Positions 3,006-58,351 of a stretch of DNA of 64,000 bases are shown here, in pieces; position 1 is the first letter of the stretch, and each line of letters starts with the position of its first letter. Position numbers and translations under genes: made by a program. The notes beneath the pieces are model-generated. The model had not been told where the DNA came from. It searched no databases and worked only from the letters and a program-made list of their open reading frames with translations. The stretch is from the IMG/VR virus record IMGVR_UViG_3300017774_006254, positions 1 to 64,000 of that record; one strand, 5' to 3'. This stretch comes from a virus.

Positions 3006-3274
3006 CAGAACTTCGTCCCCTCGGTGATGACGGGTGTCGGCGCTTCCAGGATGGGCTCAGGCGCCATGAACGGGTCCTTCTTCAGGTCATCCGATGACGC
3101 GCCCGCAGCGGCACGGGCGAAGAACACAGCGGCCTCATAGGAACGTGCCTGCACGATGACTTCCATCTTGCGATCGATCCCAGAGGGGCCTTCGACCACT
3201 GCCTGGCACCACGTGGCGTCCGTTGGGGTCTCTTGGACGATATAACTTCCAAACGTCTGGGTTCGAGCTGTCAC
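3005..3274 (-). CDS. hypothetical protein
   Basis: Coupled ORF in the operon. Confidence 0.5.
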   Translation of the reverse strand: MTARTQTFGSYIVQETPTDATWCQAVVEGPSGIDRKMEVIVQARSYEAAVFFARAAAGASSDDLKKDPFMAPEPILEAPTPVITEGTKF

Positions 3275-3678
3275 AGTTTCGTACCTTCCGGGAGTTGAAT
3301 GAAAACCTTGTCGCCGATCATGACCTTCTCTTGGCTGATGTAACCGGCTGGAACTTCGAGGACGAAGTTAGACTCTGACGAGCCGAGGACAGGCGTCGTT
3401 CCTCCAGGCTGAACGTTCTTCGCCAAGTCCACGACACGGCCAACGCCTCCCCCAGCTTGGATGAAGATGAAGTCGATAGGGAACTTCATCTTGTCCACCG
3501 CCATCGCGATGGGCCGCTTGCGGGTGCGAAGGTTCTCGAAGTGAAACAACATGCCTTCGCCGTTGGCGAGACTGGGACTGCCATTGAGGCCCTGGACCTT
3601 TTCGCTCTCCGTGATAGCAAGGCGGGCGACCACCTTCGCGGTCACTCTGGGGAAGCGAACTTCCGCGATGGTGGTCAT
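3271..3678 (-). CDS. DUF192 family protein
   Basis: A.T..E...GL...GEGMLFHF...MKFPIDFIFI...VLEVPAGY...IGDKV signature. Confidence 0.85.
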   Translation of the reverse strand: MTTIAEVRFPRVTAKVVARLAITESEKVQGLNGSPSLANGEGMLFHFENLRTRKRPIAMAVDKMKFPIDFIFIQAGGGVGRVVDLAKNVQPGGTTPVLGSSESNFVLEVPAGYISQEKVMIGDKVFIQLPEGTKL

Positions 3679-22755: not shown

Positions 22756-23147
22756 GACAGCAGTCTCCCCTCCGGCATGAGCGCGAACGGGGCCACACCT
22801 TCGATCTTCACGTACTCAGGACCAAGAGCGTTCATGCATGCGTCACTGTCACATGTGTTTGGGCGCTCGTAGATGGTGAACATGCTCGACTCCGGGGGCC
22901 TGCTTGCCGTCCGGTAGCAGTAGTAGGTGGAGTCAGGATCGTCTTCCACCGCGCGCTTCTGCGGCTCTTGGAACTTGCCCAAGTCCACTGATGTCTCAGC
23001 GGTGGTGATGAGCTTTCGTCTGTTCACGAGCCTGGCTGGGCCATCCACCCACAACCAGCCATCACGCGTGCACGTTCCAAGTTTCCGGTGACAGGCGGCG
23101 CACTTGACAACTACTACGCGAGCGGGCTCGTTAGGCTCGTCGCTCAT
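22752..23147 (-). CDS. Cys-containing hypothetical protein
   Basis: CAACHRKLG...CDSDAC. Confidence 0.55.
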   Translation of the reverse strand: MSDEPNEPARVVVVKCAACHRKLGTCTRDGWLWVDGPARLVNRRKLITTAETSVDLGKFQEPQKRAVEDDPDSTYYCYRTASRPPESSMFTIYERPNTCDSDACMNALGPEYVKIEGVAPFALMPEGRLLS

Positions 23148-23779
23148 GGAAGAAGCTTCCCTGCGTCGAACTCAGCGAACGCAGCGCGCATGCGCGTGCA
23201 GTACCCCGGGTTCGGCCCTCCATTGTATCGACGAACGAACTCCTCGACGTTGCCTTCCTTCGCGGCTGCGAGCGCTTTTGGGTTGTCCAACAGCCACGCC
23301 GCGAGAAGCTGGTCAGACACTTTGACCGGGTTCGATTTGAAAGCCTGGATGGCTGTCACGGCAGCGTACGAAGTTGTGATTGGCTGCCCGATCACGTGAG
23401 AGAACGAACTGCCGAGCTGTTGGTACGCGCCCCACGATGTCGAGATGACCGCGTTCGCCGCGTGAATCTTCTCGGCGAACTCAAACGCGGCCTTGTCGGT
23501 CTCGCTCGCAATGGAGGACGCTGACCGGTTGGCTCCGCTTCTTGTTCTTCCGGGGGTATAGGGAACCTTCCCTCCGGCACGGATAGCTTCCCTCATCTTC
23601 ACAGCAGATGCCGGAACCATGTTGCGTGGAATCGTCACGACCATGTCCGGCATGTGCCGCTTGAAGAGGTGCGGCTCGAAGCGAATTGCCTTTGGGTCGC
23701 CTCCGCTCTCGACAGCGCGAACGCCAACGAGGAAACGAATCGGACATCCTGTTCTCTTGGCGACGTCTGCAAGGCTCAT
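23144..23779 (-). CDS. N-acetylmuramidase (DUF3380-like) endolysin or virion lysin
   Basis: AVESGG, IRFEPHLF, STSWGAYQQLG, FVRRYNG; start refined to MSLADVAK. Confidence 0.85.
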   Translation of the reverse strand: MSLADVAKRTGCPIRFLVGVRAVESGGDPKAIRFEPHLFKRHMPDMVVTIPRNMVPASAVKMREAIRAGGKVPYTPGRTRSGANRSASSIASETDKAAFEFAEKIHAANAVISTSWGAYQQLGSSFSHVIGQPITTSYAAVTAIQAFKSNPVKVSDQLLAAWLLDNPKALAAAKEGNVEEFVRRYNGGPNPGYCTRMRAAFAEFDAGKLLP

Positions 23780-24393
23780 GGCTTCTCCTCGAAGTCGACG
23801 ATGGTTGATTTTCCAGACATCTCTTCGAAGCGCAGTCCGCTCTTGAAACGGACCGTGTGTCTCGGGCCTCGAAGCATGATGTGGTCGATTGGATCTTCTT
23901 CCGAAGACCCCGGGGCGAACGACTTGGCGCACTGCCAATTGGCGCGGATCACCTGCCAAAGATCTTCTTCAGCTGCGACGCGGGTTCCGCGGACGCTTGA
24001 GATCTGAGACATCTCACCGAAGACGCGCTCTTTGGTTGTCGGAATGACGAAAGAGACACAGGCGTGGTATCGCGCCTGCCAGCCTTGGTCGCCAGCCCAG
24101 GCCTCGACGCGGTGCCGGAGTCCAGCGTTCTCCAAGAAGTCGTCAAGCGACTTGGCCGTGTCCGGCGTCACATCCAGCGGCACCAGATCCTTCTCCAGCT
24201 TTCTAGCCGAGTCATGATAGTCACGACCAGCTTCTGGACGGCCTTTGTCAAACTCCGCATCTCCCTCGCGACGAAGCCAAAGAATCCGCTCCATAGTACG
24301 GATGTTCCCCAGCGCTCGGACCTTTCGAGCGCCCTCGCTCATCTTGATGTGCTGCTCTCGAAGTTCATCGAGCTTCTTCTGGTCGTAGTTCAT
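23776..24393 (-). CDS. hypothetical protein
   Basis: 205 aa, GGAG RBS. Confidence 0.6.
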   Translation of the reverse strand: MNYDQKKLDELREQHIKMSEGARKVRALGNIRTMERILWLRREGDAEFDKGRPEAGRDYHDSARKLEKDLVPLDVTPDTAKSLDDFLENAGLRHRVEAWAGDQGWQARYHACVSFVIPTTKERVFGEMSQISSVRGTRVAAEEDLWQVIRANWQCAKSFAPGSSEEDPIDHIMLRGPRHTVRFKSGLRFEEMSGKSTIVDFEEKP

Positions 24394-25913: not shown

Positions 25914-26672
25914 CTAGTACCCGAACACGGCGCGAAGTTCGACGTTGACCATGTCTGCATCTGCCACGATAAGGTCGGCGTCCTGGCCGCCTGCAAGGTT
26001 CGTAAGCGTTGCCGGGGTGAGCCCTGGGACGCTCCCAGCGTCGAACCGGTCCTGCGTCTTTCCGGCGATCGGCTGGGCAGCGAGAGCTTGCCGCGTGGCC
26101 GTAAACCATGCTCGAACCTCAGCATCGGTTGGCAGCGCGTTCCCGCCAGCCATGCTGTTGACGAAACCATCTTGCGGCGAGATCTGAAGCGACGTGGTGC
26201 CTGGCACGTAAGCAAGCGTCTCTACTTGCTCAGCGACCCTACTGCCGTCAACCCAAAGCACGTACCGGAAGCCTGCATTGACAGGCTCGACCGTGACCAA
26301 CTGAACGACAACTCGAACCTGAAAGTCTGACAGCGGAGCGTTGTACGTAGGAACAACAACGCTGAGAGCATCGAGCGTTGGCTCTACCTCGGCAGAAGAC
26401 TGAACCACGAGCCCATCCCACCGAAGCCTGGACCTCCAGGCCGATGCTCGTTCGACATCCGAGATGAGTGGAAGAGCTGGAGCGCTCGTCGCCTGAACGG
26501 AGCCGAACCAGAACGGAGGAGCGGTGCCGCCTGTCGATGGCGACGGATCTGGCTGCAAGTAGAAGTCCCCAGAAGAACTGGAAAAGAACCACATCAATTG
26601 CGTACCGGCACCCAGCGCGGGCTTCTGTCTGCGCCACGACGTCTTCCACTCAGAACCGCGCCTTGCTGTCAT
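25914..26672 (-). CDS. beta-rich protein, possible ConA/LamG-like spike
   Basis: Beta-strand pattern including YVLWVDGSRVA; lies at the end of the structural module. Confidence 0.45.
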   Translation of the reverse strand: MTARRGSEWKTSWRRQKPALGAGTQLMWFFSSSSGDFYLQPDPSPSTGGTAPPFWFGSVQATSAPALPLISDVERASAWRSRLRWDGLVVQSSAEVEPTLDALSVVVPTYNAPLSDFQVRVVVQLVTVEPVNAGFRYVLWVDGSRVAEQVETLAYVPGTTSLQISPQDGFVNSMAGGNALPTDAEVRAWFTATRQALAAQPIAGKTQDRFDAGSVPGLTPATLTNLAGGQDADLIVADADMVNVELRAVFGY

Positions 26673-27708: not shown

Positions 27709-28335
27709 TCACACGATCAGAGACCGAAGTAGAGCCGCTGCATTGCTCTCGTTCACCAGCCACCCGGTAAGCTCTACGCTGAAGAACCGCAGATCGATGT
27801 TCGGCTCTCGAAAGATCGCGACCTTAGCTATGATTTCGCTATTCGGCGATGCGTAAGCCGCAAAGTTCTGTCCGACAGGAGGCAGGATCGAACCCGAGAA
27901 CGGATAGATTCTACCCTCTCCCGGGCTGACGCCAACCGTACCAGCGGCTCCGCTGTTGCCCAGTGAAGCAAGCACAGCACCCTGCGGGACCGGAGCGGAG
28001 TTTGTATTGAAATTCGTGAGCCCTTGGTTTCCAATCAACAGACTGAATCCCAGGGTCCCCGTAGTACGCGAAGGTGCCACCATCTCGAAGTCGTCGACGC
28101 CAACTCCAGAGTGCTGGAACGCTTTGAATTCGGCCGAACGAAGGACAATGACCTGGTTCCTTTCGACGACCAATTTCATAATCGTCAGCTCGGTAGGGAA
28201 CACTGCTCCGATACCTGGCTGAATTGGATTCGGCATCTCCTTGAAGTAGACGCGCTGGTAGAACGTGGTCTCTTTCTGCGGAAGCAGAGACGAGAATCCG
28301 CCTACTTGTCGAAAGGGAGGGGGCGCCATCATCAC
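27709..28335 (-). CDS. putative beta-sandwich (jelly-roll-like) minor capsid protein
   Basis: Alternating beta strands (KLVVERNQVIVL), terminal strand VELTGWLV; lies near the capsid candidate. Confidence 0.45.
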   Translation of the reverse strand: MMMAPPPFRQVGGFSSLLPQKETTFYQRVYFKEMPNPIQPGIGAVFPTELTIMKLVVERNQVIVLRSAEFKAFQHSGVGVDDFEMVAPSRTTGTLGFSLLIGNQGLTNFNTNSAPVPQGAVLASLGNSGAAGTVGVSPGEGRIYPFSGSILPPVGQNFAAYASPNSEIIAKVAIFREPNIDLRFFSVELTGWLVNESNAAALLRSLIV

Positions 28336-29342
28336 ATCGCAGGCGACTGCGCCTGGAGAATCTTGTAGCCAACGAGCGTGATGTAGAGCGTGCCACCGAG
28401 TGCAACGATCATACGGCCGCTCTGAGCGGGATCGTTCGCGATCGGGTCAGGCGGCGGCGAGACGCCACCTTCCTGGAATCCGTTCGGCAGTGCTGCGTAG
28501 TTGATCTCGGCGAAGCCCAGGTCGCGCGTGAGCGTTGCGGCCACCTTCACCGACGAGCCGCGTTCGTAGAAGTCCGAGACGGGCAAGTAGAGTGGCCGAT
28601 CGAACTCGGAGAACATGAAGCGGCTAGGAATCGGGATCTGGTTCTGACGTTGACGGTCAACGCCGTCGTCGGAGAACTCAAACAGGAAGTCGATCGTTCC
28701 AGGGCGAAACGTCTGAACTGCTTGGGCAGCTGCTGTGTTCGCTGCCGCAGCTGGGATTCCACCAAGGCCGACGCCCAGGTACGCGCCAGAGAAGGGGTCT
28801 GCGGTCGACGCGGTCGGACGGAACCTGCCCGAGAGAGGCGTGATGACTTCCGTGCCAGCGGGCTGGTCGTTCGGACGACCAGGAGCGTCACCAGTGCCTG
28901 CGTACGGGCCAATGGAGTACGTCTTGAGAAGGAACGCGCTCATCAAGGTCGTGCAGACGAACGGGCCGTCCTGGCTGATCTGCTTGCTGTCGACGAGACG
29001 CGACCCAGCGAGAGAGACCGACGGCGAACTCTGGCCAGGAACGTTGATCTGCGTACCAAGAAAGTAAGGCACCCTCTTCCCTGGGATGTCCTCGATGTAC
29101 CTGATACGATCTGCGGCCTTCTTGAGCGCGATGCCCAGGCGCTTGATCTCCATCTTGTCGTCAGCGGCGGCGGCGGCCAGCTCCTGATAGCGCTGCTGCA
29201 CAGCCTCCATCTGTGCTTCCGTGCGCCTCTGCTTTGAGGCCAGTTGACGGGCGAACGCTTCCAATTCCTGTGACATCTGCTCTCCAGAGTTCGGGCCAGC
29301 CGCTGGACTCCTTGTCCTTGGCCAACCGGAAGAACTACTCAC
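28332..29342 (-). CDS. putative jelly-roll-like capsid/penton protein with an N-terminal coiled coil
   Basis: Coiled coil, then QISQDGPFVCTTL...PLYLP...ITLVGYKI; alternative ATG at 29276 has an RBS. Confidence 0.5.
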   Translation of the reverse strand: MSSSSGWPRTRSPAAGPNSGEQMSQELEAFARQLASKQRRTEAQMEAVQQRYQELAAAAADDKMEIKRLGIALKKAADRIRYIEDIPGKRVPYFLGTQINVPGQSSPSVSLAGSRLVDSKQISQDGPFVCTTLMSAFLLKTYSIGPYAGTGDAPGRPNDQPAGTEVITPLSGRFRPTASTADPFSGAYLGVGLGGIPAAAANTAAAQAVQTFRPGTIDFLFEFSDDGVDRQRQNQIPIPSRFMFSEFDRPLYLPVSDFYERGSSVKVAATLTRDLGFAEINYAALPNGFQEGGVSPPPDPIANDPAQSGRMIVALGGTLYITLVGYKILQAQSPAM

Positions 29343-32092: not shown

Positions 32093-32905
32093 TCAGAGGA
32101 CGTCGCGGGAGTGGATGCCGTCGATGAGGTACTTGACGTCCTTCTCGATGTCATCGCGACCCGCCGTCGACAGGCCGGTGCCCGAGGCGCCCGACGCGAC
32201 GATCGTTCCGCCAGGACCGTTGCCCCACGCGTCGTTGTTCGGCACGAGGCCGTTCAACTGATCCACAACCGACGCGCCCGAAGCCTGGCCGATCGGCGAT
32301 GCGATCGCGATGACGACGAAGCCCTGACGAGGCGGAATGAGGATCGGACGCGCAAGACGCATGAGCGCCGAGCTGGTGGGCACGCCGTTGTTCGCGCGGG
32401 GAAGGCGCGAATCAGCGAAGAAACCATCGAGACCACCAGCAAACGGCGTGTACGCCGTGTACGTGGTGAGCTGGGGCTTGTCACCAGCTTGGAACTGCCA
32501 GAACAGCTGGTTCTGGGTCTGGTGGTAGAGCTTGTGCACGCGGTTGATGCGGTCTCCGGAGACCGTGCCAACTGCGCCAACCGGCGTCGCGTTGCCCGCG
32601 TTGATCGCAGGGAAAGTCTGGTCCGCGCCGGTCGTCGAACGCGGCGACTCGGTATTGAACCTGAAGTACGTCCAAACGCGGACCGCGAGGGTCACGAACG
32701 TCTGGTCGGAGGGGAAGAAACCACCGGTCGTCAGGTTGCTGACGGCGATGTCCGCACCCTGCTTGGTGAAGAGCTGCGAGCGGCTCTGCACGGCCCCGAA
32801 CACGCCCACGTTCGCCTGACGGAGGTCGCCCTGACCGTCTACGCGAAGGAGGGAATCGTAGAACGGCTGATGGATGCGTTCCCTGGTACCAACAATTTTC
32901 GGCAT
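32093..32905 (-). CDS. putative major capsid protein (single jelly-roll-like)
   Basis: 270 aa from MPKIVG; QPFYDS...LF...SNLTTGGFFPSDQTFVTLAVRV...PILIPPRQGFVV...YLIDG. Strong codon bias, structured leader and downstream hairpin. The fold is inferred, not shown. Confidence 0.55.
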   Translation of the reverse strand: MPKIVGTRERIHQPFYDSLLRVDGQGDLRQANVGVFGAVQSRSQLFTKQGADIAVSNLTTGGFFPSDQTFVTLAVRVWTYFRFNTESPRSTTGADQTFPAINAGNATPVGAVGTVSGDRINRVHKLYHQTQNQLFWQFQAGDKPQLTTYTAYTPFAGGLDGFFADSRLPRANNGVPTSSALMRLARPILIPPRQGFVVIAIASPIGQASGASVVDQLNGLVPNNDAWGNGPGGTIVASGASGTGLSTAGRDDIEKDVKYLIDGIHSRDVL

Positions 32906-33067: not shown

Positions 33068-33883
33068 TCAGCCGAGCATTCCGGAGAAGATGTGACGAGC
33101 GAACACGCCGCCCGCGTAGCCCTGATCGCCCGAAGCGAAAGACTTCGAGACGCGGCGGACCTGAGGCCTGGACTGCATGGGAATCGCGCCGTCCGTAGGC
33201 GTGATGGTGGTGACCGCTTCCATGCGGTTCATCGAGCTGTCGACTGCACCTTGGTCACCGGGCTCGCCAAGGTCGCCGATGCCAGAGATGCCGTCGCCAG
33301 AGTCGCCGAGGCCGCTCATCGGCTGATCGACGTACTCACCGATGCCAGCCGCGGCGTACATCGTGCCGAGACCAAGCATTCCCTTGTAAGGCGCGCCCGC
33401 GTGGGAGATGTCGTATCCACGACCCATCCCAGAGAGCATGCCTTCGTTGTAGTAGCCCGCCGTAGCCGTTGGAGCCGCAGTCGCCGGAGCGCTTGCGACA
33501 GCCGGAAGGATGGCAGCTGCTGGTGAGCCGCCGAGCATCGGCATGTTGCGAATGAACGATTCCGATGCAGCAAGCCCCGCTCCGATCACCGCCGCATTGG
33601 CCATTGGGCCGCTGACGAGGGAAGGAAGCGAACGCTGGGCAGCGAAGTAGGCCGGGATGAGAACGGCCGCAGCGGCAACCTTGCCATACCGTGGGTCGGC
33701 AAGCAAGCTGATTTTGCTGGAGGCGATGTTTCCAGCGACACGGGTGGCGACAAAGCCAACCGTGCCACTGAGAACCGGACTTACGACGTCCCGCACGATG
33801 TCAGAGTCCAAGAAATTCTTGAGAATCCGACGGACTCCCCGCTTCGAGCGGGCATTTTTGCGACTGGTACGGCGACGTGCCAT
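33068..33883 (-). CDS. core/membrane-associated structural protein, paralog of the C-terminus of 33931-36696
   Basis: Basic N-terminus, hydrophobic helices, GEYVDQPMSGLG, C-terminus GYAGGVFARHIFSGMLG. Confidence 0.65.
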   Translation of the reverse strand: MARRRTSRKNARSKRGVRRILKNFLDSDIVRDVVSPVLSGTVGFVATRVAGNIASSKISLLADPRYGKVAAAAVLIPAYFAAQRSLPSLVSGPMANAAVIGAGLAASESFIRNMPMLGGSPAAAILPAVASAPATAAPTATAGYYNEGMLSGMGRGYDISHAGAPYKGMLGLGTMYAAAGIGEYVDQPMSGLGDSGDGISGIGDLGEPGDQGAVDSSMNRMEAVTTITPTDGAIPMQSRPQVRRVSKSFASGDQGYAGGVFARHIFSGMLG

Positions 33884-33930
33884 GAGGAACTCCTTGAGAG
33901 ATGTTGCTGCTGAAGCTCAAGAGCCTAGGC

Positions 33931-36696
33931 TCAGAGCATTCCGCCGAAGAGATGACGTGCGAACACGCCGCCTGCGTAGCCCTTGCCCTCTGGCGTGACG
34001 AGCGATGCGTTGATCTCGCGATCAAGCGGCATCTGGCCCGTGACCGGAAGCGCTCCGGAGACTGGCATCTCGATCGACGCCCACGGCGGCTGGCGCTTGG
34101 AGTACATGGCGGCCAGGTCTGCATCCGCTTCGCCCGAGCCCATTTCATCGGACCCGAAGCCAGCTGCGGCCTCCATGACGCCGCCTTCCATGGCGTTCAT
34201 GGCGCCATCAATTCCGGCCATGTTGCCCGGATCGATGCCCTCGGCGTACGAGCCGACGCCCGCTGCCGCGTACATCATGCCCATGCCGCTCATCGGCTGA
34301 TCGACGTACTCGCCGGTGCCTGCTGCGGCATAGAACGCGCCCATGCCGTTCATCGGCTGGCTGACGTACTCGCCGATGCCGTTGACGTACTCACCGAGGT
34401 ACGCAGCAGCGCTTGTTCCCGCCGACACGCGCTGAATGACGCGGTCAGCGAGGGCCAGGCCCATGCCGGTGACGAGTGCGCCACGATGACGCCTCACGAT
34501 GCCCACCTTGGTCGCGAGACCAAGCGTTGCAGCGATGCCGAGGATGTTCGCGGCGATCTTGGTGTTCGAGGCGCCCGAAGCGTCCGAAGCGCCCGAGTCA
34601 AGCATGCCTCGGACCGCGCCGATGTTCGCGACACCGTTCGAGAGCAAGCGTGCTGCGATGAAACCAGCGGTGCCGCCAAGAACTGGCGTTGCGACATCAA
34701 GGATCGCGCCCATGCCGTTGCGACGAACGCCACGACGCGAACCACGACGACGACGTGAGCTGCGACGATTCATGACCACGTACTTCTGATTCCTGCGCAT
34801 CGACGACCTCTTTCTCGACGAACGACGCCTTTTGTTCGCCGTCATCTTCCTGCTTGACTTCCTGGACTTGCGCCGCCCGTACCATGCGGGGGGCTTGCGC
34901 CAACGGCTGTAGCGCCTGCGCTCCGCGTATCCACCAGTGGTGGCGCGTGCGTGCGCGTCCTTCGCAGCTCCGCCGAAGCGGAATTTGCGCACGTACGAGT
35001 GCTGCGAGACGTGCGGCGGAACGAGGACCGGATAGCCCGCGTTGCGGAACTTCCTGCCGGACTTCGGGCCGTACTCGACGAGCTGGTAGTAGCGGCCCTT
35101 GGGCGTGCCGACTCGGCTGGAGCCTGAGCCTCGGTACTTGACCTTCGAGACGGCCAGCATGTTGCGCGTCAAGCGCGAGCCACGACGGCGCGAACCACGG
35201 CGTGATCCGCGACGCGAACCGCGACGCGAACTGCGGCGCCTGTTCATGACCACGTACTTCTGGTTGGCCGTCACACGACGACGCGAACCACGACGACGGC
35301 GTGAGCCTCGACGCGATGAACGACGACCATTGGCCGTGGCGTACATCACATTCTTGCTCATGCGACGGCGCGAGTTCCGGCGAACCGAACCCCGACGCGA
35401 CCTGCGACGACGGCGACCGTTGGCTGTTGCGTACATGGTGTTCTTGCTCATCCTGCGACGTGAGTTGCGACGAACCGCTCGGCGCGAACCTCGGCGCGAC
35501 GAACGACGTGACGATCGGCGCGACGCGCGACGCGACCGGCGACGACCATTGGCCGTCATGCGGCGCTTCCTGCGACCACGGTACGTGGCGCCAACCGCGT
35601 AGCCACGCTTCGAGGAACCACGGGGCTTGCCACGCCTGCTGGTGAGACGACCAGCCGAACGCGGGATCGGGTAGGTGAGAATGCTCGGGCGTCCAGAACG
35701 GCTGAGCGGAAGTCGACCAACCCTCGTGATCGTGGGCATCAGCCCGCGCGTGAGGTACTTGTCGATGTACTCGCGGCCCGTCGTGCGAACACGCTTGCCA
35801 TGAAAGTAGCGCTTCTTGCTGGCGCGCCTGCGGGACGAACGGCGACTGCGCTTGCGCCCATTCGCCTGCATGCGGCTGTTGCGGCGACGGCGCGCTGCTG
35901 CACGCGAAGCCCTCGTCGAGTGGCGCTTGCTTCCGCGAGCGACGGCCACACGGCGACTGCCCCTGCGCGAAGACTTCTTCGAGGTCTTGCGTGACGTCTT
36001 GCGGGCCCTCTTCTTTGGACCAGTGCCAGCCTTGCGCGTGAGCGCGGCCTTGCGACCAGCCCGACGACGCGACGTGCGACGCGCTGATGTCTCGCGAATC
36101 GAAGCTCGGCGACGAGCCTTTCCGCGAGGGGTCTGCCTCGATGCGCGACGGCGACGACCACGCGACGAAATGGACATGCCACCCGCCGAACGCGTCTCAG
36201 TCACAGCCTCATGATCTTGACCACCACGAGCAGCTGCGCCCATTCCTGCGTACATCTCGTCTTCGTCGAACCCGTAGTTGCGACGAAGCCCATTGGACTT
36301 CATTGCCTTCCTCAGGGCGCTGATGTTGTATGCCATTCCACTTCTCCTCTTAGGGTTCCTGAGCATCGAGCCAGGGATCGCTTTGGTTAGGACCGTTCCG
36401 TACTCATCGGTCGCGTAGAGACGAGCTTTGCCTCGGCCCTTTCCGGTCTTGTCCGGATGACGCTCCGCCCAAGACTTCGCACCTTGCAGCGTCCTGTACT
36501 GCGGGCTTTCATGGATCTGCTTCCTACGACCAGAGATCCATTGAAATGGATTTTGCTGCGGAGGACGGCCTGTGTTCACGACAGTCAGCGCATTGACCCC
36601 AGGGTTCGAACGAAGACCACGATTCGGCTCCATGCCAGGCGATCTCTCGTACTGGCGCGCCGACTGCTTGGTGCTTCGTTTGTAGACTAGGGCCAT
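33931..36696 (-). CDS. giant Arg/Ser-rich protamine-like core protein with a hydrophobic C-terminal domain
   Basis: 921 aa; SRRGSRR repeats punctuated by xxN motifs; C-terminus GYAGGVFARHLFGGML. Confidence 0.75.
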   Translation of the reverse strand: MALVYKRSTKQSARQYERSPGMEPNRGLRSNPGVNALTVVNTGRPPQQNPFQWISGRRKQIHESPQYRTLQGAKSWAERHPDKTGKGRGKARLYATDEYGTVLTKAIPGSMLRNPKRRSGMAYNISALRKAMKSNGLRRNYGFDEDEMYAGMGAAARGGQDHEAVTETRSAGGMSISSRGRRRRASRQTPRGKARRRASIRETSARRTSRRRAGRKAALTRKAGTGPKKRARKTSRKTSKKSSRRGSRRVAVARGSKRHSTRASRAAARRRRNSRMQANGRKRSRRSSRRRASKKRYFHGKRVRTTGREYIDKYLTRGLMPTITRVGRLPLSRSGRPSILTYPIPRSAGRLTSRRGKPRGSSKRGYAVGATYRGRRKRRMTANGRRRSRRASRRSSRRSSRRGSRRAVRRNSRRRMSKNTMYATANGRRRRRSRRGSVRRNSRRRMSKNVMYATANGRRSSRRGSRRRRGSRRRVTANQKYVVMNRRRSSRRGSRRGSRRGSRRRGSRLTRNMLAVSKVKYRGSGSSRVGTPKGRYYQLVEYGPKSGRKFRNAGYPVLVPPHVSQHSYVRKFRFGGAAKDAHARATTGGYAERRRYSRWRKPPAWYGRRKSRKSSRKMTANKRRRSSRKRSSMRRNQKYVVMNRRSSRRRRGSRRGVRRNGMGAILDVATPVLGGTAGFIAARLLSNGVANIGAVRGMLDSGASDASGASNTKIAANILGIAATLGLATKVGIVRRHRGALVTGMGLALADRVIQRVSAGTSAAAYLGEYVNGIGEYVSQPMNGMGAFYAAAGTGEYVDQPMSGMGMMYAAAGVGSYAEGIDPGNMAGIDGAMNAMEGGVMEAAAGFGSDEMGSGEADADLAAMYSKRQPPWASIEMPVSGALPVTGQMPLDREINASLVTPEGKGYAGGVFARHLFGGML

Positions 36697-38752: not shown

Positions 38753-39142
38753 TTATCCACGCACTTGGATTCGAAGCATAGCTTTCAGTAGTGCGCGCAG
38801 GCCCGGAACCAAATCGAGCTTCAGCGCGTCTTCGGCATCGGCCCAGCGCATGTCGCTCGATTCCCAGTTGGGTTTGGGAGTGCCAGTCCACGCTGTGCAC
38901 ATGTACGTCGTCAGAGTGCCCCATTTACCTCTGGACTCGGCCACTTTTAAGAGCCCTTTTACTCGCAAATTAGCTTCTTCGAGGGTCTCGCGGATGACTG
39001 CCTGTCGCGGTGTTTCTCCGGGATCGACCTTCCCCATGGGGGTATTCCACCGGTCCGGCATCCATGGGGCTGTCGAGCCTCGACGCAGGAGAAGGATGCG
39101 CCCTTGCTTGTCCACAAGGATGCAAGCTGCGGCGTCCGTCAC
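38753..39142 (-). CDS. NUDIX hydrolase
   Basis: ILLLRR...W..PMGKVDPGETPRQAVIRETLEEANL NUDIX box; GTG start at 39142. Confidence 0.9.
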   Translation of the reverse strand: MTDAAACILVDKQGRILLLRRGSTAPWMPDRWNTPMGKVDPGETPRQAVIRETLEEANLRVKGLLKVAESRGKWGTLTTYMCTAWTGTPKPNWESSDMRWADAEDALKLDLVPGLRALLKAMLRIQVRG

Positions 39143-39423
39143 CTGACCGCTCGTCGTGAGTTCTTCTTCATGTTCGACGCGCCGAAAAAGACAGCGGCTG
39201 CGACGCCCACAAGGCCTGCCCAGCCAAGCACCACTGGCCACCCAATAGCCTGCCGAGGAGGTGGCGTTGGGTCTGAAGCTTGCCCAAGAGCCCGAGCTTG
39301 AGCAATCTCCATTGGGGAGTGGCGACAAGGTGCCGTTGAGATCCGCAACTCGTGGGGTCCCATACAGCGACACCTCGACGTCACGACACCGCACCGGCAT
39401 CTCTCGATGTAGTGGCCCATCAC
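39139..39423 (-). CDS. tail-anchored membrane protein, Cys-rich N-terminus
   Basis: CRC..CRC, ALGQ, TM, MKKNSRR. Confidence 0.6.
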   Translation of the reverse strand: MMGHYIERCRCGVVTSRCRCMGPHELRISTAPCRHSPMEIAQARALGQASDPTPPPRQAIGWPVVLGWAGLVGVAAAVFFGASNMKKNSRRAVR

Positions 39424-39719
39424 TTCCTTCGGAAAGCGAAGAAAGCTCCAACGCCAAGCAGGAGCGCTCCACCGATGAGGTACGGGGTGTACGAGACCTC
39501 AGGCGCCTGTCCGTATGGGAGTCCGGTCGCGGGGTTGATCGCGCCGTACGGCATGCCTGTCGCCGGGTTCATTGGAACCTGGCCTGCGGTTGCGGAAGGA
39601 TCGGCAGCTGGAGGGGTTCGCCCCGCTGCGATGAGCTGCGCCGCAGCGGTACCCACTGCGGTCGTAATTGCCGCGACATCCTCAGCTGTGGTTCCCATCG
39701 ATCTTGCGTACGACATCAT
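39420..39719 (-). CDS. tail-anchored membrane protein (MSY type)
   Basis: MSYARSMG; NPATG(M/L)PYG twice; TM followed by RRK. Confidence 0.65.
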   Translation of the reverse strand: MMSYARSMGTTAEDVAAITTAVGTAAAQLIAAGRTPPAADPSATAGQVPMNPATGMPYGAINPATGLPYGQAPEVSYTPYLIGGALLLGVGAFFAFRRK

Positions 39720-39910
39720 CTACTCCTTCGGTTGCGTTTGACACGACGACGAGCAACTGCGTATGCCGCCCAGCTCAAGGCAACCGCTGCGACTCCAAGT
39801 GCGATTGTACCGCCGATGACAGTGTTCGCCACAGACGTGACGGTCTGCTGAATGGCATGCTCAACAGCTGGCGTGGACTGCCCAAGAGCGCGAATGTGTT
39901 GGTAGCTCAT
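39716..39910 (-). CDS. small membrane protein (MSY type)
   Basis: MSYQHIRALGQ; TM; VKRNRRSR. Confidence 0.6.
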   Translation of the reverse strand: MSYQHIRALGQSTPAVEHAIQQTVTSVANTVIGGTIALGVAAVALSWAAYAVARRRVKRNRRSR

Positions 39911-40539
39911 TTTCGCCTGTTCCTTCGCACTCGTCCACGAGGGCTGTAAGCAAGAGACCGCGCCGTCCGCTGCGACACGTAAACGGCCGCCCCAACAAGA
40001 CCAATGGCTACCACAGCCGCAGAGCCGATGATGAGAGGCGAGGTGGGAGGTGTCAGACCAACCGTGTCTGGTGGATCTTGCGGAGATGTGCGCGGCGGAG
40101 GATCGGGGACCGGACCGACCGGATACACGTAAACGTCATCCCGAAGGGGAGGCATGATGATCCTGTATCTGCGCAGAATGATTTGTGATCGCGGGCTGAT
40201 CTCCAACGAGGCCCGAAGCAAAGCATCTCGAATGGAGGTCGCATAAGCCACAGCGGGACGCTCACTCGTCGGCCTCCAGCGCGCATACAAAAAACCACCC
40301 GTGACCCACCTGACATCAAGAACAGTCCCCATAGAAGACAGCGTAGACCGAACGATCGCTTTTGCCGTCTCAGCCTGCTCTGGGGTGATGTTCCTGACGA
40401 CCAAGTTTGCGTCGAGAGCTGGGACAAACCCATAAAGCCCAACGCCAAGCCTCGTGACGCCAACAGAGAGACCTTGGACCTCAGTTGTGTTTGCTGTCGG
40501 AATGGAAACCGGAGTTTCGCCAGAAAGTGCGTAGCTCAT
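39907..40539 (-). CDS. tail-anchored membrane protein (MSY type)
   Basis: Start refined to MSYALSG; TM; VRRNRRK. Confidence 0.65.
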   Translation of the reverse strand: MSYALSGETPVSIPTANTTEVQGLSVGVTRLGVGLYGFVPALDANLVVRNITPEQAETAKAIVRSTLSSMGTVLDVRWVTGGFLYARWRPTSERPAVAYATSIRDALLRASLEISPRSQIILRRYRIIMPPLRDDVYVYPVGPVPDPPPRTSPQDPPDTVGLTPPTSPLIIGSAAVVAIGLVGAAVYVSQRTARSLAYSPRGRVRRNRRK

Positions 40540-41102
40540 CGAAGCCTCCTGCGGCGGTTGAACGTGAGCTTGGACAGCGTCTTGATTCTCGCGTAGTTGT
40601 TCAACAAGTACCCCGCACTCACAGCGCCTGCGATACCGATGACAGCCCAAGCCATGAGCGTGTAGTTCGCCGAACGAACAAGATTTGGTTGCTCATCCTC
40701 AGAGAGCCGAGCGTACTGCGTAGGACTTGATCCCGTCAGCGCTCTGTATCGATCTTCGAGCAGGTTGTACCTGTTGACGTACTCCTGGGCCGGAGAGATC
40801 GATCCTTGCGCCCACCATGTAGAAGCCGTGTGGTTGAACGCGAGCCACTGATTTCGCAGCTCGTCCCAGTCAGCGAGAAACCGCGTGCCGACAGCGTTGG
40901 CTCGAAGCGCAGCTCGCCGTGGGATGATGTCACGGTCAAGAGACGTGATCTGCCCGTTGATCTGGTTCAACCACGCCCTGACTTCGCCAGGAAGCCAAGC
41001 CAGCCGACTCGGAGTCACCAGTTCGCCAAGAGACGAACGATTCGAGCGCATCGAGCACCCGCAACCGAGCCCATGCACGTGCGGGCGCAGTGCGTAGCTC
41101 AT
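40536..41102 (-). CDS. tail-anchored membrane protein (MSY type)
   Basis: MSYALRPHVHGLGCGCSMRSN; TM; LTFNRRRRLR. Confidence 0.65.
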   Translation of the reverse strand: MSYALRPHVHGLGCGCSMRSNRSSLGELVTPSRLAWLPGEVRAWLNQINGQITSLDRDIIPRRAALRANAVGTRFLADWDELRNQWLAFNHTASTWWAQGSISPAQEYVNRYNLLEDRYRALTGSSPTQYARLSEDEQPNLVRSANYTLMAWAVIGIAGAVSAGYLLNNYARIKTLSKLTFNRRRRLR

Positions 41103-41644
41103 GACCGCCTCCGCCTCCTGCGGTTCGCGCGCACCGGTGCTCCTGCAAGCATGAAGTACGCACCCAAGCCAACGAGAGCCGTGCCACCAAGGATCCACGG
41201 AAGGAGGCTCCTTCGACTCACCTCGACCTCAGCAGGCTTCTCCTCCAAAGCTGACTCTGAGGTCGCCGAAGTGTTCCCTTGGGGCCGTGGCGTGACCGTT
41301 GGATCGGCGACCCGCTGGAGAGCCTCAAGACGGGTCGCCAGAGTCTTGGAAACGAGAACACGCGGCGTAACTGCGATGTTCGTTGGGAACGTGGACGGCA
41401 CTGGCAGTCCTGGTCCCGCTTCCGTCAGACCAGCAATCGTTAGGGGGCCTGCACGACCGTCGACCGCGATGGAAGCCTGCCCCCGAGAAGCGCGGAAGGC
41501 GTTGACGGCACGTTGAGCCCAGGTGGCCGTGGTGTCCCAGTACCGAGCGTCAGGTGCGTATGCGCGCCGTTCCCGATCGGGGCCCAAGGCCGTCGATGCG
41601 GTAGGCACGAACGAGTAGTCGATTGCTTGACCCAGATACGACAT
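41099..41644 (-). CDS. tail-anchored membrane protein with a peptidoglycan-binding-like motif
   Basis: MSYLGQ; WAQRAVN...IAVDGRAGPLT resembles PG_binding_1; TM; VRANRRRRRRS. Confidence 0.6.
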   Translation of the reverse strand: MSYLGQAIDYSFVPTASTALGPDRERRAYAPDARYWDTTATWAQRAVNAFRASRGQASIAVDGRAGPLTIAGLTEAGPGLPVPSTFPTNIAVTPRVLVSKTLATRLEALQRVADPTVTPRPQGNTSATSESALEEKPAEVEVSRRSLLPWILGGTALVGLGAYFMLAGAPVRANRRRRRRS

Positions 41645-41683
41645 CACACCCTCTTCTCGCAGCGATCACCTCGCGGCGTTTCT

Positions 41684-42415: not shown

Positions 42416-43492
42416 TCAGTCCCATCCCATGTCGAGGCTTCGGACTTCCCCGGGCTTCGCGATGCGCACGTTCTTTGGCTTCAACGTGACGGTCATCCCG
42501 CCGCCCCTGTGGGTATTCGGCTTGCCCATCTCAGTGGCCAGTCGCGTCGCTTCAGTTTTGCTCGAAGCCAAGGCAGTGTTGTATCCGCCGCCGACCCAGT
42601 TCCACACCCACAGCTTCTTGGTGCTCTTGGGACGCGGGTTCCGAGTGACACGTCGCGAACTGGACTTTCGCTTCCGCTTTGGAATCGAGAAGGTCGTCTC
42701 TTGGGTTTTGATCTTGCAGCCAGGCCCGTGGCCGCGCTTGCCCAAGTCGGGCTTGCCACATGACGGACACGGAAAACTGCCAGCGTTCATGCGCATGCGT
42801 GATCGGCGCCTCGACCCGCGCCGACGCCTATTTGGCGTAACCACCCTCTTCGGCTTCAGGGCGAAGAATGCAAGCGCCCCCACAGCGAGCGTGCCTCCCG
42901 CGAGAACACCCCACATCGGGATGCCTCCAACGGTCTGCGTGAGGAAGGTTGGTTCAGCACTGCCGTCGTAGTACGGCTGCGCTCCAGGCATAGCGCCGGG
43001 AATGGTCGCTGGAGTGGTCGCTGGGGCCGGAAACAAGCTCGTCAGCAAGCCCGTCACCGCCGAGGTCGCAGCTGCCCCCGCATTCGCACCGCTGGAAGCA
43101 CCAGGGCTACTGGATGCGCCAGGAGACGAGGGAGGCGACCCGTACGTCCAGGCGTGCGTGTTTGTGACGCGCGATCCTGAAAGCAGAGCTTGAATCTGCG
43201 CGCCCATGCGAGCGAAGGCCTGATTCACAGCTTCGCCAGTCAGCGCACCCGACGCACGGACGGTCACCCAGAGACTGCCCGCGGGGACGCCACCAGGCGC
43301 AGAAGGGCCGCCCCAACCACTGCCGACGATCGTCCCTGGGAACGAAGCTGCGGCGGTACGCAAGGCCTGAAGCTTCTGCTCAGCCGTGCCGTTGGCTTGA
43401 ACAAGGAATCCGCCGACGAATTGCTGACCTGGCACGTAGCTCGCGCCCGTCGCCAAACCACCAAGACCACTGAACCCTCTTGTGTAACTCAT
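42416..43492 (-). CDS. membrane protein (MSY type) with a basic, Zn-knuckle-containing tail
   Basis: MSYTRGFSGLG; TM; VTPNRRRR, MRMNAG, CPSC..H..C, VTRNP. Confidence 0.65.
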   Translation of the reverse strand: MSYTRGFSGLGGLATGASYVPGQQFVGGFLVQANGTAEQKLQALRTAAASFPGTIVGSGWGGPSAPGGVPAGSLWVTVRASGALTGEAVNQAFARMGAQIQALLSGSRVTNTHAWTYGSPPSSPGASSSPGASSGANAGAAATSAVTGLLTSLFPAPATTPATIPGAMPGAQPYYDGSAEPTFLTQTVGGIPMWGVLAGGTLAVGALAFFALKPKRVVTPNRRRRGSRRRSRMRMNAGSFPCPSCGKPDLGKRGHGPGCKIKTQETTFSIPKRKRKSSSRRVTRNPRPKSTKKLWVWNWVGGGYNTALASSKTEATRLATEMGKPNTHRGGGMTVTLKPKNVRIAKPGEVRSLDMGWD

Positions 43493-43848
43493 CGCCTGCT
43501 CCTTGGGCGCCTGTTGGCGCGAACTTGCCTCGACGGCTTCAGGGTGTTCCATGCGAACAGCCCAAAGCTGCCAATCGACAACGCGAGTCCAATCAGCGAG
43601 TAACGCTCCATCCGCTGGGCTCGCTGCTCTTCCTTCGACAACTCCGTGACTTGGCCAAGGTGCGACGACTGAAGGTACGGACGACGCGGTCCGAGATGCT
43701 CAGACCGAAGACGAGGCGGCTGCGTGGTGTAGATGAATTGCGACACCGAGCCCCGCTGACGCTGCGGCTGACTGAGGTCCGCAAATACCCACGGGTTCGT
43801 AACTCCCCATGGCTGATAGCCAAGGGCTCTGTTCACTCGGTAGGTCAT
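43489..43848 (-). CDS. tail-anchored membrane protein
   Basis: MTYRVNRALG; HLGQ; TM; VRANRRPRSRR. Confidence 0.6.
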   Translation of the reverse strand: MTYRVNRALGYQPWGVTNPWVFADLSQPQRQRGSVSQFIYTTQPPRLRSEHLGPRRPYLQSSHLGQVTELSKEEQRAQRMERYSLIGLALSIGSFGLFAWNTLKPSRQVRANRRPRSRR

Positions 43849-44117
43849 CACTCCTCCTGACCGCGGCGAATGCTCTTCGCGACGTTCTTCTTGATACGAG
43901 GCATGAGCCAACCCCAGACCGCGTAGCCAATTCCAATTCCCGTGGCAACTCCCAATGGAATCGTGAACGCAGGGCGCTTGTACCAAGCAAGGGCGCTGGT
44001 ATCGACTTGCCCAACGCCGTACAAGGGGACAACGCCTGCTGCCGCTGTGCGGACGCCGGTCATGTTCTGTGCGTAAGCCTCACGAGCTTGAGGCGTGACG
44101 AAGTCCTGTGCGTTCAT
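43848..44117 (-). CDS. tail-anchored membrane protein
   Basis: LYGVGQ; TM; IKKNV. Confidence 0.6.
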   Translation of the reverse strand: MNAQDFVTPQAREAYAQNMTGVRTAAAGVVPLYGVGQVDTSALAWYKRPAFTIPLGVATGIGIGYAVWGWLMPRIKKNVAKSIRRGQEE

Positions 44118-46252: not shown

Positions 46253-46902
46253 TACTTCAGAGCGATCTTGGCTGCGACAGCTAGCGCCAAAATCCCAGCG
46301 ATTCCGACGCCCGCATAGAGTACCGTGCGATTCGTCTGCGCGCCCGTGTTTAGCCTTGCCATCTCTAGGGCGGCGGCGGCCTGCTGCGCGGCCACTTCAG
46401 CTTGTAGGCGAAGGGTCGGGAGGTTGCAATTCCCAATCGCCGCTCCAGCATTCGCTCCTCCGACGATGGAGGTGTCTGCTCCAGATCGAAACGCTCCAAC
46501 CCAGCCGCCCGTGCTCGCTGAGAGCGAGGCACCTGTGCAGGCAAACGTGTTCGCATCCGCGGCGAAGTCGCCAAGCCCCGACATGCCACGAGCCGCCTGA
46601 CTTCCAGCCCATTCCTGTAGGCGATTGGCGAGCACGAGCCGAATCGCGTCGAACACCGCTTGATCCGGAGTGCGCGTGCGAGAGATGATGCCGATCTTTG
46701 CGATCGCTTCGTCTCCCATCTTTGGCCACAGGTTGTTCAGGCGGTTGCGAAGCCAAGCCATTCTGGATGAAGCGTCAACCTTGGCCATGTGGAGCATGAC
46801 TTCGCTCGCCATGAGCGAAGCTTTGCTCACGAACGGATCTGTCTGAGCAAGCTGCCCCGAGACGACTTGCCCGAGCCCAGCCATTGCTTGTGCGTAGCTC
46901 AT
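46252..46902 (-). CDS. tail-anchored membrane protein, paralog B
   Basis: MSYAQAMAGLGQ; ASLMASEVM...DQAVFDAIRLVLAN; MSGLGD; C-terminal TM. Confidence 0.7.
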   Translation of the reverse strand: MSYAQAMAGLGQVVSGQLAQTDPFVSKASLMASEVMLHMAKVDASSRMAWLRNRLNNLWPKMGDEAIAKIGIISRTRTPDQAVFDAIRLVLANRLQEWAGSQAARGMSGLGDFAADANTFACTGASLSASTGGWVGAFRSGADTSIVGGANAGAAIGNCNLPTLRLQAEVAAQQAAAALEMARLNTGAQTNRTVLYAGVGIAGILALAVAAKIALK

Positions 46903-47234
46903 CGACTTCTCCGACGCGACTTTCGGCCGCTTCTGTTCTTGGTGACACCAGGACGCGCAAAGCCTTGCGTGAACGCAATCACCGGGACAACAACAGGGAG
47001 CATCGCGCCCCCAAGAAACCACGCGAGCGTCCACCCGAGGTCGCCGCGATTCCGCTTGTACCCATGGTACGCAGAAACCGCTGCGCTGATAGTCGAGAGT
47101 CCCCAACCAGCAACCACCATCGCTCCTGTCGGTCGGAACGTGACGGTGATCGGAGACGGAACTGAATCGATCGCCTGTCCGAACGCTGAGAGGCCGATTC
47201 CGGGACCGTCGTAGTAGTTCGTCTTGGTGGTCAT
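46899..47234 (-). CDS. two-TM membrane protein
   Basis: AYHGYKRN between two hydrophobic helices; VTKNRSGRKSRRRSR tail. Confidence 0.65.
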   Translation of the reverse strand: MTTKTNYYDGPGIGLSAFGQAIDSVPSPITVTFRPTGAMVVAGWGLSTISAAVSAYHGYKRNRGDLGWTLAWFLGGAMLPVVVPVIAFTQGFARPGVTKNRSGRKSRRRSR

Positions 47235-47235
47235 A

Positions 47236-47832
47236 TCAGTCAATCTCGAAAATGGTGTATTGCTTGATCCGACGAAGCATATTCCCTGTCCGGCGCCCCG
47301 CAACAGGATCGAGGACCCACCACTGCTTCGTGCGGGGATCTTGAGCACGCGCAAAGACGTGCGTATGAATTTTCGGCTCGCCAGCCAACTGCGGCTTGAA
47401 GCCACAAGTGACAAACTGACCTCGGGCCCCGATTGTCAGACAAGATGTAGCAATCGCGAGAGCGATGTCGTCACAGTCGCAAGCGGCACGCCCCGCAAGG
47501 GCATCAGCCAGAATACGGTCGGGACTGCGAATCAGCTCAACGTGCAGAGGATCGCGCGTGTACCTGGTTGCGTTTCCCCACCAGCGGGAGATCGCGATGC
47601 ACTCGCTCGAATAGTCCTTCGGCCGCACGTTGTTGATGATCTGTTCCGTGTGTCTGCGGAAACTGATACTGCGCTCCCCCTGCAACGCATTCTGCACCAT
47701 CACTCGCGGGTCGACGAGACCCTTTGCGAGGTTGATCATCACGGCAACAGTGTGATCAGTACCTCGGTATGGTTCCGTGGTACCAACTGCGTTGTTGTAG
47801 GTCGGTGAGTATGAGTTTGCTCTGAGCTGCAT
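47236..47832 (-). CDS. transglutaminase-like (papain-fold) cysteine enzyme, putative maturation protease
   Basis: RYTRDP..VELI.SP, CDCDDIA (Cys), HTHVF (His), WWVLDP (Asp). Confidence 0.8.
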   Translation of the reverse strand: MQLRANSYSPTYNNAVGTTEPYRGTDHTVAVMINLAKGLVDPRVMVQNALQGERSISFRRHTEQIINNVRPKDYSSECIAISRWWGNATRYTRDPLHVELIRSPDRILADALAGRAACDCDDIALAIATSCLTIGARGQFVTCGFKPQLAGEPKIHTHVFARAQDPRTKQWWVLDPVAGRRTGNMLRRIKQYTIFEID

Positions 47833-58278: not shown

Positions 58279-58351
58279 GTCCCCATAGCTCAGCGGATAG
58301 AGCAGGTGCTTTCTAAGCACTTGGCCGGGGGTTCGAATCCCTCTGGGGACG
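58279..58351 (+). tRNA. tRNA-Arg (anticodon TCT)
   Basis: Acceptor GTCCCCA/TGGGGAC; D-arm GCTC/GAGC; anticodon loop TTTCTAA; T-loop GTTCGAATC; CCA not encoded. Confidence 0.93.

Follow-up and report, generated by a model that had tools for sequence, protein, structure and literature searches.

To our knowledge, all well-studied bacterial viruses with double-stranded DNA (dsDNA) genomes contain essentially naked DNA that an ATPase has pumped into a preformed shell. Protein-condensed genomes are known from eukaryotic viruses, such as adenovirus and baculovirus, and from a few small archaeal viruses. Here, a gene is analyzed from what appears to be an undescribed lineage of large, apparently tailless bacterial viruses. 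It is located at positions 33931-36696 on the minus strand of a 64,000-nucleotide (nt) stretch (the window), the first 64 kb of the 161,502-bp IMG/VR record IMGVR_UViG_3300017774_006254, which carries 123-bp direct terminal repeats and represents a complete genome. The gene encodes a polycationic protein of 921 amino acids (aa) that appears to be a kind of viral DNA-condensing core protein. With a probability of roughly 60%, it is a major internal virion protein whose polycation binds and neutralizes the genome, whose helices lie in or on the inner layer of the particle, and whose C-terminus reaches the outer layers. Judged by function, two known systems seem to come closest, namely the pVII/mu core of adenovirus, together with the associated protease, and the virion plan of SPV1; by sequence, the protein is a member of neither.

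Adenovirus precursors carry a short hydrophobic-x-x-x consensus that is common to several virion proteins and is cut by the DNA-bound protease AVP (PMC4246237, PMC7998265). The locus resembles adenovirus pVII and pre-mu (pX) in its Arg-rich viral proteins, dsDNA, and icosahedral jelly-roll capsid, with the DNA association and the capsid type presumed in our case, and here too a short shared motif marks several proteins of the virion module. However, this motif, Phi-x-x-N (Phi being M, V, L, or I), ends in Asn and not in Gly-Gly or Gly-x-Gly, whereas AVP sites are of the (M/I/L)xGx-G type. The locus further differs in having a polycation of ~490 aa fused to a hydrophobic domain and a bacterial host. 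In Pfam scans, which covered the 44 largest or nearby open reading frames (ORFs) and 123 further ORFs of at least 100 aa, the 921-aa protein matched no family at E 0.01, Adeno_VII and pX included, and no adenain-like protease was found in the proteome; a PHROG scan, covering 19 ORFs of the first group, found no relative of the protein. As there is no sequence homology, the comparison with pVII and mu, already drawn in a first-pass annotation of the window, is an analogy only.

The archaeal virus SPV1 (Sulfolobus polyhedral virus 1; Portogloboviridae) has a VP1 nucleoprotein core, an internal layer of lipid, and a single jelly-roll shell of VP4 and VP10 (PMC8459092; PDB 6OJ0). Overall, the plan that we infer for the present virus is the same: DNA coated by protein in the core, a membrane, connectors at the sub-capsomer level, and a shell of jelly-roll proteins. 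No packaging motor has been described for SPV1. In the present virus, a nucleoprotein core within a lipid layer may exist, as suggested by the polycation, by helices of borderline hydrophobicity, and by the dozen or so membrane proteins predicted in the module. Yet SPV1 is a 20-kb archaeal virus compared with the 161-kb bacterial virus studied here, no sequence relationship was found, and the structural match between the two is middling. Moreover, VP1 is small and filament-forming, whereas the present protein is a 921-aa polycation that is presumably linked to a membrane.

Other systems share fewer features. Baculovirus P6.9, white spot syndrome virus (WSSV) VP15, and protamines are free-standing proteins of 50-100 residues with neither a hydrophobic domain nor Phi-x-x-N; they resemble the 921-aa protein in Arg/Ser-rich low complexity, very high positive charge, and presumed neutralization of packed DNA, with no homology. 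The internal head proteins of T4- and phiKZ-like phages share a cleavage consensus, which is S/A/G-x-E in phiKZ and L/I-x-E in T4, the latter being that of the T4 maturation protease gp21. Such phages encode an HK97 capsid, a portal, a terminase, and a recognizable prohead protease, and their internal proteins are not known to be polycations as large as this one. In contrast, the Pfam and PHROG scans detected no HK97 capsid, portal, terminase, tail protein, prohead protease, or adenain in the present genome, divergent versions being possible. Finally, the Helvetiavirae (P23-77, HHIV-2, and HCIV-1) resemble the present virus in jelly-roll matches with Z scores of 5.3-5.6 and in the many small membrane proteins of the structural module. 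They differ in having genomes of 17-31 kb, no described protamine-like protein, and an FtsK/HerA-type packaging ATPase beside the capsid genes, which was not found here.

Conservation and architecture of the 921-aa protein

The ORF noticed in the first-pass annotation is present on the minus strand, starts with ATG, and is, on comparative grounds, a genuine conserved gene. At least 34 metagenomic homologs of 515-950 aa were found (E 1e-120 to 4e-11, with the C-terminal 267 residues as query). Their layout is constant: the N-terminus varies and is followed by polybasic sequence, three helices rich in Gly and Ala, GEYVxQPMxG(M/L)G repeats, and a C-terminal peptide that is almost invariant. Relatives keep the minus-strand frame open and conserved throughout, with a length of 939 aa for L011 and 978 aa for L017, and the frame is 40-75% identical end to end, with the non-repetitive domains and the MALVYKRSTK start included. 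Arg codons are biased, as CGC and CGT make up 76% of them compared with 50% in the remaining genome, and GC content at third codon positions exceeds that at second positions (GC3 > GC2). The viral tRNA-Arg(TCT) at 58279-58351 was considered as a supplier for the gene and rejected, because AGA accounts for only 3 of its 180 Arg codons, compared with 8% of Arg codons elsewhere. A PDB profile search with the C-terminal-domain family was empty, and full-text literature searches turned up no paper describing the lineage or the protein. Public gene calls for the family are often wrong; for instance, a 432-aa product starting at MTRNM and antisense ORFs over the Arg-rich part are called in L017 (4300-7299), where the true frame spans 978 aa. 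A natural split into such 432-aa "short forms" was rejected, as the upstream frame is open. These frequent miscalls bias the family size and length statistics of databases.

The protein is rich in Arg (19.5%), Ser (10.4%), and Lys (5.4%), with a net charge of +188, while its final 261 residues are slightly acidic. The N-terminal region (aa 1-170; 36187-36696, minus strand, as are all features of the protein given below) is not polybasic and occurs in about half of the called homologs; the N-terminal part shows 41% identity over aa 1-251 to the most distant homolog (L009). AlphaFold2 (AF2) modeled aa 65-115 with a predicted local distance difference test score (pLDDT) of 52-76. The region is followed by the polybasic region (aa 175-660; 34717-36174), which is punctuated by Phi-x-x-N and contains 150 Arg, 35 Lys, and only six acidic residues, giving a net charge of +179. 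Its pLDDT is below 50 outside two islands, and it is predicted to be disordered. Length and Arg/Lys ratio vary among homologs, some of which have Lys for Arg, and the basic character is retained.

While the first-pass annotation was right about the basic region, which it described as about 500 aa of SRRGSRR-type blocks, these blocks are not uniform, as they are interrupted by two conserved, less basic islands. Island A (aa ~295-380; 35557-35814) shows an occupancy of 0.74-0.91 and an identity of 0.32-0.49 among 35 homologs and is modeled as a short helix with strands (pLDDT 50-63). Island B (aa ~505-607; 34876-35184) begins with LTRN, followed by a predicted beta-hairpin, a strand, and a helix (pLDDT 59-75). 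It is the best-conserved non-hydrophobic part of the protein, with identity up to 0.65 and with Q538, G554, R570, and A578 invariant; a search of the ESM Atlas with aa 505-610 gave no usable match, and the model of the Atlas itself had a pLDDT of 0.39. Two internal duplications that had been reported were also recovered in the DNA. The first is a lineage-specific tandem duplication at aa 408-459 (35320-35477; repeat family D7) of a 30-aa unit, VRRNSRRRMSKN(T/V)MYATANGRR..., with 90-nt spacing and 78% nt identity; it is recent, since the alignment occupancy is only 0.08-0.28. The second, NQKYVVMNRR, is present as two copies at 34759-34791 and 35233-35265 with 85% DNA identity.

Directly after the invariant N660 (VRRN/G) lies a Gly/Ala-rich hydrophobic domain (aa 661-760; 34417-34716) with three predicted helices, placed by AF2 at residues 663-689, 708-727, and 738-759. 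It is followed, as the annotation had stated, by GEYVxQPMxG(M/L)G repeats, here together with YAAAG (aa ~765-815; 34252-34404). Two full GEYVxQPMxGMG units, GEYVSQPMNGMG and GEYVDQPMSGMG, are present, homologs carry between zero and five copies, and the underlying DNA repeat families (D5 and D6) are common to a shorter paralog described below. The protein ends with the near-invariant peptide TPEGKGYAGGVFARHLFGGML (33934-34008), which is 82% identical across the long homologs (identity 0.82) and is kept in both paralog clades. Across a 44-sequence alignment (A5), the parts that stand out as most conserved are island B, the cluster of motifs directly ahead of the helices, the helical domain itself, and the C-terminal peptide. 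The better-modeled parts of the full-length AF2 prediction are aa 65-115, 305-340, and 512-590 (hairpin, strand, and helix), together with the three helices.

The Phi-x-x-N motif and the surrounding gene module

All motifs listed in the first-pass annotation (MQANG, MTANG, VRRNS, MSKN, ATANG, VTANQ, VVMNR, LTRNM, MTANK, MRRNQ, and VRRNG) are found in the translation. Their statistics were derived from 420 Asn residues in the basic regions of 35 long proteins (the 921-aa protein and 34 homologs), which do not represent independent events, the proteins being related. At position -3, M, V, L, or I is found in 308 of the 420 cases (73%), with M enriched 12.4-fold and V 5.8-fold over background, and the signal is position-specific, as Met is not enriched at -2 (8 cases). 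Position -1 is usually Ala or Arg, while Gln (5.3-fold) and Pro (2.4-fold; 37/420 sites, 9%) are enriched after the Asn. The pattern [MVLI]x[RAKS]N occurs 11 times in the 921-aa protein compared with 1.1 +/- 1.0 times in composition-preserving shuffles, and the counts lie ~4-15 standard deviations over shuffles in nearly every homolog. Repeat expansions differ by lineage, and Phi-x-x-N is kept in each; N660 is invariant, and N512, N636, R630, R634, and R658 are at least 90% conserved. Based on these statistics, Phi-x-x-N occurs far above chance and appears to be a conserved functional signal. A role of Phi-x-x-N(G) as helix C-caps that split the polycation into short helices was also considered and set aside; AF2 shows no helices there, which is weak evidence either way.

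Just downstream of the 921-aa gene, a 271-aa paralog (33068-33883, minus strand) has a basic N-terminus of ~30 aa followed by the same hydrophobic domain, repeats, and C-terminal peptide. It matches the 921-aa protein with E 3e-11, has 69 homologs of its own, and carries a canonical ribosome-binding site, AAGGAG, 7 nt ahead of its ATG. The paralog is probably the same kind of connector with a shorter tail. At their 3' ends (33074-33123 and 33934-33983; repeat family D8), the two genes are 88% identical over 50 nt, compared with ~38% aa identity in the rest of their length, suggesting gene conversion or a C-terminal peptide under very strong constraint.

The next gene (32093-32905, minus strand) encodes a 270-aa single jelly-roll capsid candidate whose true start is residue 30 of a 299-aa ORF. 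It is the most conserved gene of the module, being 66-82% identical in five related viruses, and has 79 representative homologs. AF2 predicted a single jelly roll (pLDDT 74.8), whose best structural match is the SPV1 capsid (6oj0_T; Z 7.1, root-mean-square deviation 3.7, 137 aa; Foldseek E 6e-3), followed, among many viral jelly rolls, by HHIV-2, HCIV-1, and P23-77 VP17 (Z 5.3-5.6). As these Z values are middling, the matches support a jelly-roll fold and not a specific relationship. A PDB profile search with the family of the capsid candidate as query found no sequence match, Pfam and PHROG scans of the paralog and its neighbors gave nothing informative, and tblastn against 50,697 phage records found nothing for either the paralog or the capsid candidate. 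The order of long gene, short paralog, and jelly-roll gene is kept in six related contigs, with all three genes co-oriented, and the module as such is found in related contigs of 62-298 kb. Its position, always just upstream of the paralog and the capsid candidate, places the 921-aa protein in a particle-building module. Two further minus-strand proteins, of 336 aa (28332-29342) and, adjoining it, 208 aa (27709-28335), are strongly conserved, the former being 55-77% identical in relatives and matching only unnamed viral clusters in the ESM Atlas. A capsid set of three paralogs (270, 336, and 208 aa) is unsupported by sequence, as the hhalign profile-profile probability is below 1%.

Phi-x-x-N is not confined to the 921-aa family. 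At least six small ORFs of the module with a hydrophobic segment end in Phi-x-x-N followed by a basic tail, and three more are found elsewhere in the genome. The six, all on the minus strand, are a small membrane protein ending in NMKKN-SRRAVR (39139-39423), a 64-aa membrane protein ending in VKRN-RRSR (39716-39910), and predicted membrane proteins ending in VRRN-RRK (39907-40650), VRAN-RRRRRRS (41099-41647), VRAN-RRPRSRR (43489-43986), and VTKN-RSGRKSRRRSR (46899-47414). Relatives have tagged tails too, of which five lie within 5 kb of L009, while L011, L013, and L014 contain others, and the reverse order, of poly-Arg, VRRN, Pro/Gly, and helix, is also found, as in the 921-aa protein. Being common to many otherwise unrelated proteins, Phi-x-x-N seems to mark the borders of poly-Arg stretches across the virus group.

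In several of the tagged membrane proteins, moreover, the first residues are MSY (or MTY), and (A/Y)LGQ or GMG comes no more than ~10 residues later, as seen for the ORFs at 39716-39910 (the 64-aa protein), 39907-40650, 41099-41647, and 43489-43986, and in L011 at 2321-2701 and 2705-3541. This start looks like a second shared signal at the end opposite the basic tail, and is similar to the Y...G(M/L)G repeats found toward the C-terminus of the 921-aa protein. The ORF at 39139-39423 is overlapped in a different frame by the upstream part of a 239-aa NUDIX ORF (38753-39472, minus strand), which is probably over-extended at its 5' end, as the NUDIX domain occupies residues 113-230 and the L011 ortholog has 145 aa.

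A proposed virion core role and its alternatives

In the proposed mechanism, the disordered region of ~490 residues would bind the 161-kb dsDNA electrostatically and neutralize or compact it, while the three-helix Gly/Ala-rich domain would attach the protein to the inner, probably lipid, layer of the particle. As the number of helices is odd, it is proposed that the polycation and the C-terminal part lie on opposite sides of this layer. The GEYVxQPMxG(M/L)G repeats and the last ~20 residues could then contact outer layers, such as sub-capsomer or capsid proteins, and the short paralog and the tagged small membrane proteins may add further DNA-facing tails. Phi-x-x-N would act as a signal at the poly-Arg borders, whether for cutting, docking, or sorting. 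A complex prediction between the capsid candidate and aa 760-921 scored 0.00 with the partner fold uncertain and carries no weight either way.

The first-pass annotation had proposed a DNA-condensing protein that links the genome to a membrane. The first part agrees with a conserved gene in the particle-building module and with a charge of ~+180 over a predicted disordered region, which fits a DNA-binding or DNA-neutralizing core protein; the membrane link is less secure, the helices being only borderline hydrophobic. Several points weigh against a core protein that bridges genome and shell. DNA binding, virion location, membrane topology, and the contacts of the protein are all deduced from genes and predictions. 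The best 19-residue Kyte-Doolittle window of the helical domain is 1.61 (family median 1.58), the Wimley-White octanol free energy is ~0, and each of the three helices contains charged residues, so membrane insertion is plausible but unproven, and the helices could instead form a soluble or oligomerizing helical bundle. The full-length AF2 model (alignment A5) is of low confidence, with 651 residues below 50 and a mean pLDDT of 45.6, which is too low for a fold search. Regarding the capsid candidate, a Z score of 7.1 is under the level that the tool deems distinctive, and jelly rolls are found in phage decoration and fiber proteins too. Finally, a packaging ATPase is missing as judged by profile searches, and most genes of this genome match nothing.

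Among the alternatives, the one that deserves most attention, while tentative, extends the core-protein role and is the reading of the first-pass annotation. In this view, the protein would be a polyprotein in which a virion protease or Asn-dependent self-cleavage at Phi-x-x-N frees protamine-sized Arg/Ser peptides from a membrane anchor and also shortens the poly-Arg tails on the small membrane proteins, comparable to the processing of pVII and pre-mu by the adenovirus protease. A position-specific, conserved motif common to unrelated proteins of one virus is the pattern of maturation-protease sites, as in adenovirus (PMC4246237), and Phi-x-x-N is found exactly at the borders between poly-Arg and hydrophobic segments in either orientation, including the invariant N660 at the junction of polycation and helices. 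Candidate enzymes can be named as well. A 198-aa ORF starting with MQLRAN (47236-47832, minus strand) shows, by eye only, a Cys...His...Asp pattern like the transglutaminase/papain core, and a SprT-like metalloprotease ORF (genome positions 154755-155798, minus strand) contains an N-terminal basic stretch and VARN, with residues 18-132 sharing 76% identity with a stretch that lies in the structural module in a 171-kb relative (L011, 3793-4137). However, the former has no Pfam match even at E 0.05 and none in the proteome-wide scan, and the proteome-wide Pfam scans gave no match to an Asn-specific protease, adenain, prohead protease, or legumain. Pro follows the Asn at 37 of the 420 sites, a 2.4-fold enrichment, and Asn-Pro is a poor substrate for ordinary endopeptidases; cutting at clustered sites would give products of 7-8 residues, e.g., TMYATAN. 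The motif is also present within the conserved helical domain (LLSN and IAAN), where cutting seems unlikely, and the three nearly invariant sites could equally be structural.

A more far-reaching version of cleavage, which we regard as doubtful, is that Phi-x-x-N and poly-Arg together form a virus-wide maturation code. DNA-condensing oligo-Arg peptides would be made as parts of fusion proteins, with membrane proteins and the 921-aa protein as carriers; membrane, DNA, and shell would come together in the absence of a packaging motor, and Asn-directed cleavage would free the peptides afterwards. The chemistry involved may be a new protease specificity or an Asn-lyase reaction tolerating both Asn-Pro and Asn-Gly.

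It could further be speculated that the protein is a size-determining or scaffolding protein, similar to a tape measure, that spans the inner face of the shell and sets its dimensions, with the charge only recruiting DNA or lipid. Such a role would suit a long, largely extended or disordered protein with conserved terminal anchoring elements, whose length varies from 515 to 978 aa among viruses with contigs of 62-298 kb. Yet a charge of ~+180 would make little sense if no nucleic acid were bound, PRD1-like and chlorella viruses are not known to have polycations as tape-measure proteins, and the length variation arises by gain and loss of repeats in the basic part, making this role improbable. 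Slightly less probable again is a pilot or ejection protein, in which the poly-Arg region, being membrane-active and cell-penetrating, would guide the DNA through the host envelope and would not condense it in the particle. Oligo-arginine is membrane-active, a tailless virus needs a delivery device, and hydrophobic helices and a polycation are here combined in one protein; still, as many small membrane proteins carry the same poly-Arg tag, a general surface facing the DNA is a better fit than a single machine for delivery.

An intracellular DNA-binding protein that shuts off the host nucleoid or organizes a replication compartment, and is merely encoded in a late operon, seems very unlikely. 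While any polycation binds DNA, the gene is strictly syntenic and co-oriented with the capsid candidate and the paralog, and both the C-terminal module and the motif are common to other membrane proteins of the module. That the ORF is merely an open frame across GC-rich, CGN-rich, low-complexity DNA can be practically dismissed, as conservation from first to last residue in relatives (40-75% identity) and GC3 > GC2 effectively refute it, even though antisense frames are open too (e.g., 33901-34758 and 35099-35602, plus strand) and are sometimes chosen by public gene callers.

Genome content and implications for packaging

The virus is bacterial, judging by its gene content, including an M23 peptidase, LysM, an N-acetylmuramidase, a LexA-like repressor, and an integrase, and by the AAGGAG ribosome-binding site. 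The N-acetylmuramidase-domain protein (23144-23959, minus strand; E 1.6e-9) is encoded at the edge of the module; it may act in lysis or entry and further argues for a host with peptidoglycan. A host search of 185,579 species genomes with the family profile found only two contigs of ~1.5 kb in metagenome-assembled genomes (Nannocystaceae and Acidobacteriota), which are too small for assignment. Other genes encode ThyX, an AEP primase, methyltransferases, and UvrD and SNF2 helicases, as well as a 1040-aa ResIII/DEAD-type helicase (genome positions 81383-84505) split by an intein with Hint and LAGLIDADG homing endonuclease domains. A 624-aa protein with a Cas12f1-like TNB domain (TnpB/Cas12-like) is encoded at genome positions 74613-76487.

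Searches for a packaging motor were negative. Six-frame searches of the genome with Pox_A32, Terminase_6N, and TerL_ATPase gave no match at E<=1, and for FtsK_SpoIIIE the sole match was sub-threshold (16 bits) and fell within the ORF of the SNF2 helicase. No ORF of the module contains a plausible Walker A P-loop, the sole regular-expression match lying near the C-terminus of a 252-aa ORF (25914-26672). Co-assembly of genome and protein instead of ATPase-driven packaging, as suggested in the first-pass annotation, is consistent with these negative searches.

The frequent miscalling of the gene, as truncated forms and antisense ORFs, helps explain why the lineage has gone unnoticed. If the maturation-code reading were true, it would represent an encapsidation route without a known example among bacterial dsDNA viruses, here for a genome of 161 kb. 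One protein, together with one short motif common to about ten proteins, offers a testable handle on the system. Together, a protein with a charge of ~+180, its hydrophobic domain, an adjoining jelly-roll gene, and no detectable motor suggest that the particle of this large bacterial virus is put together in a different way.

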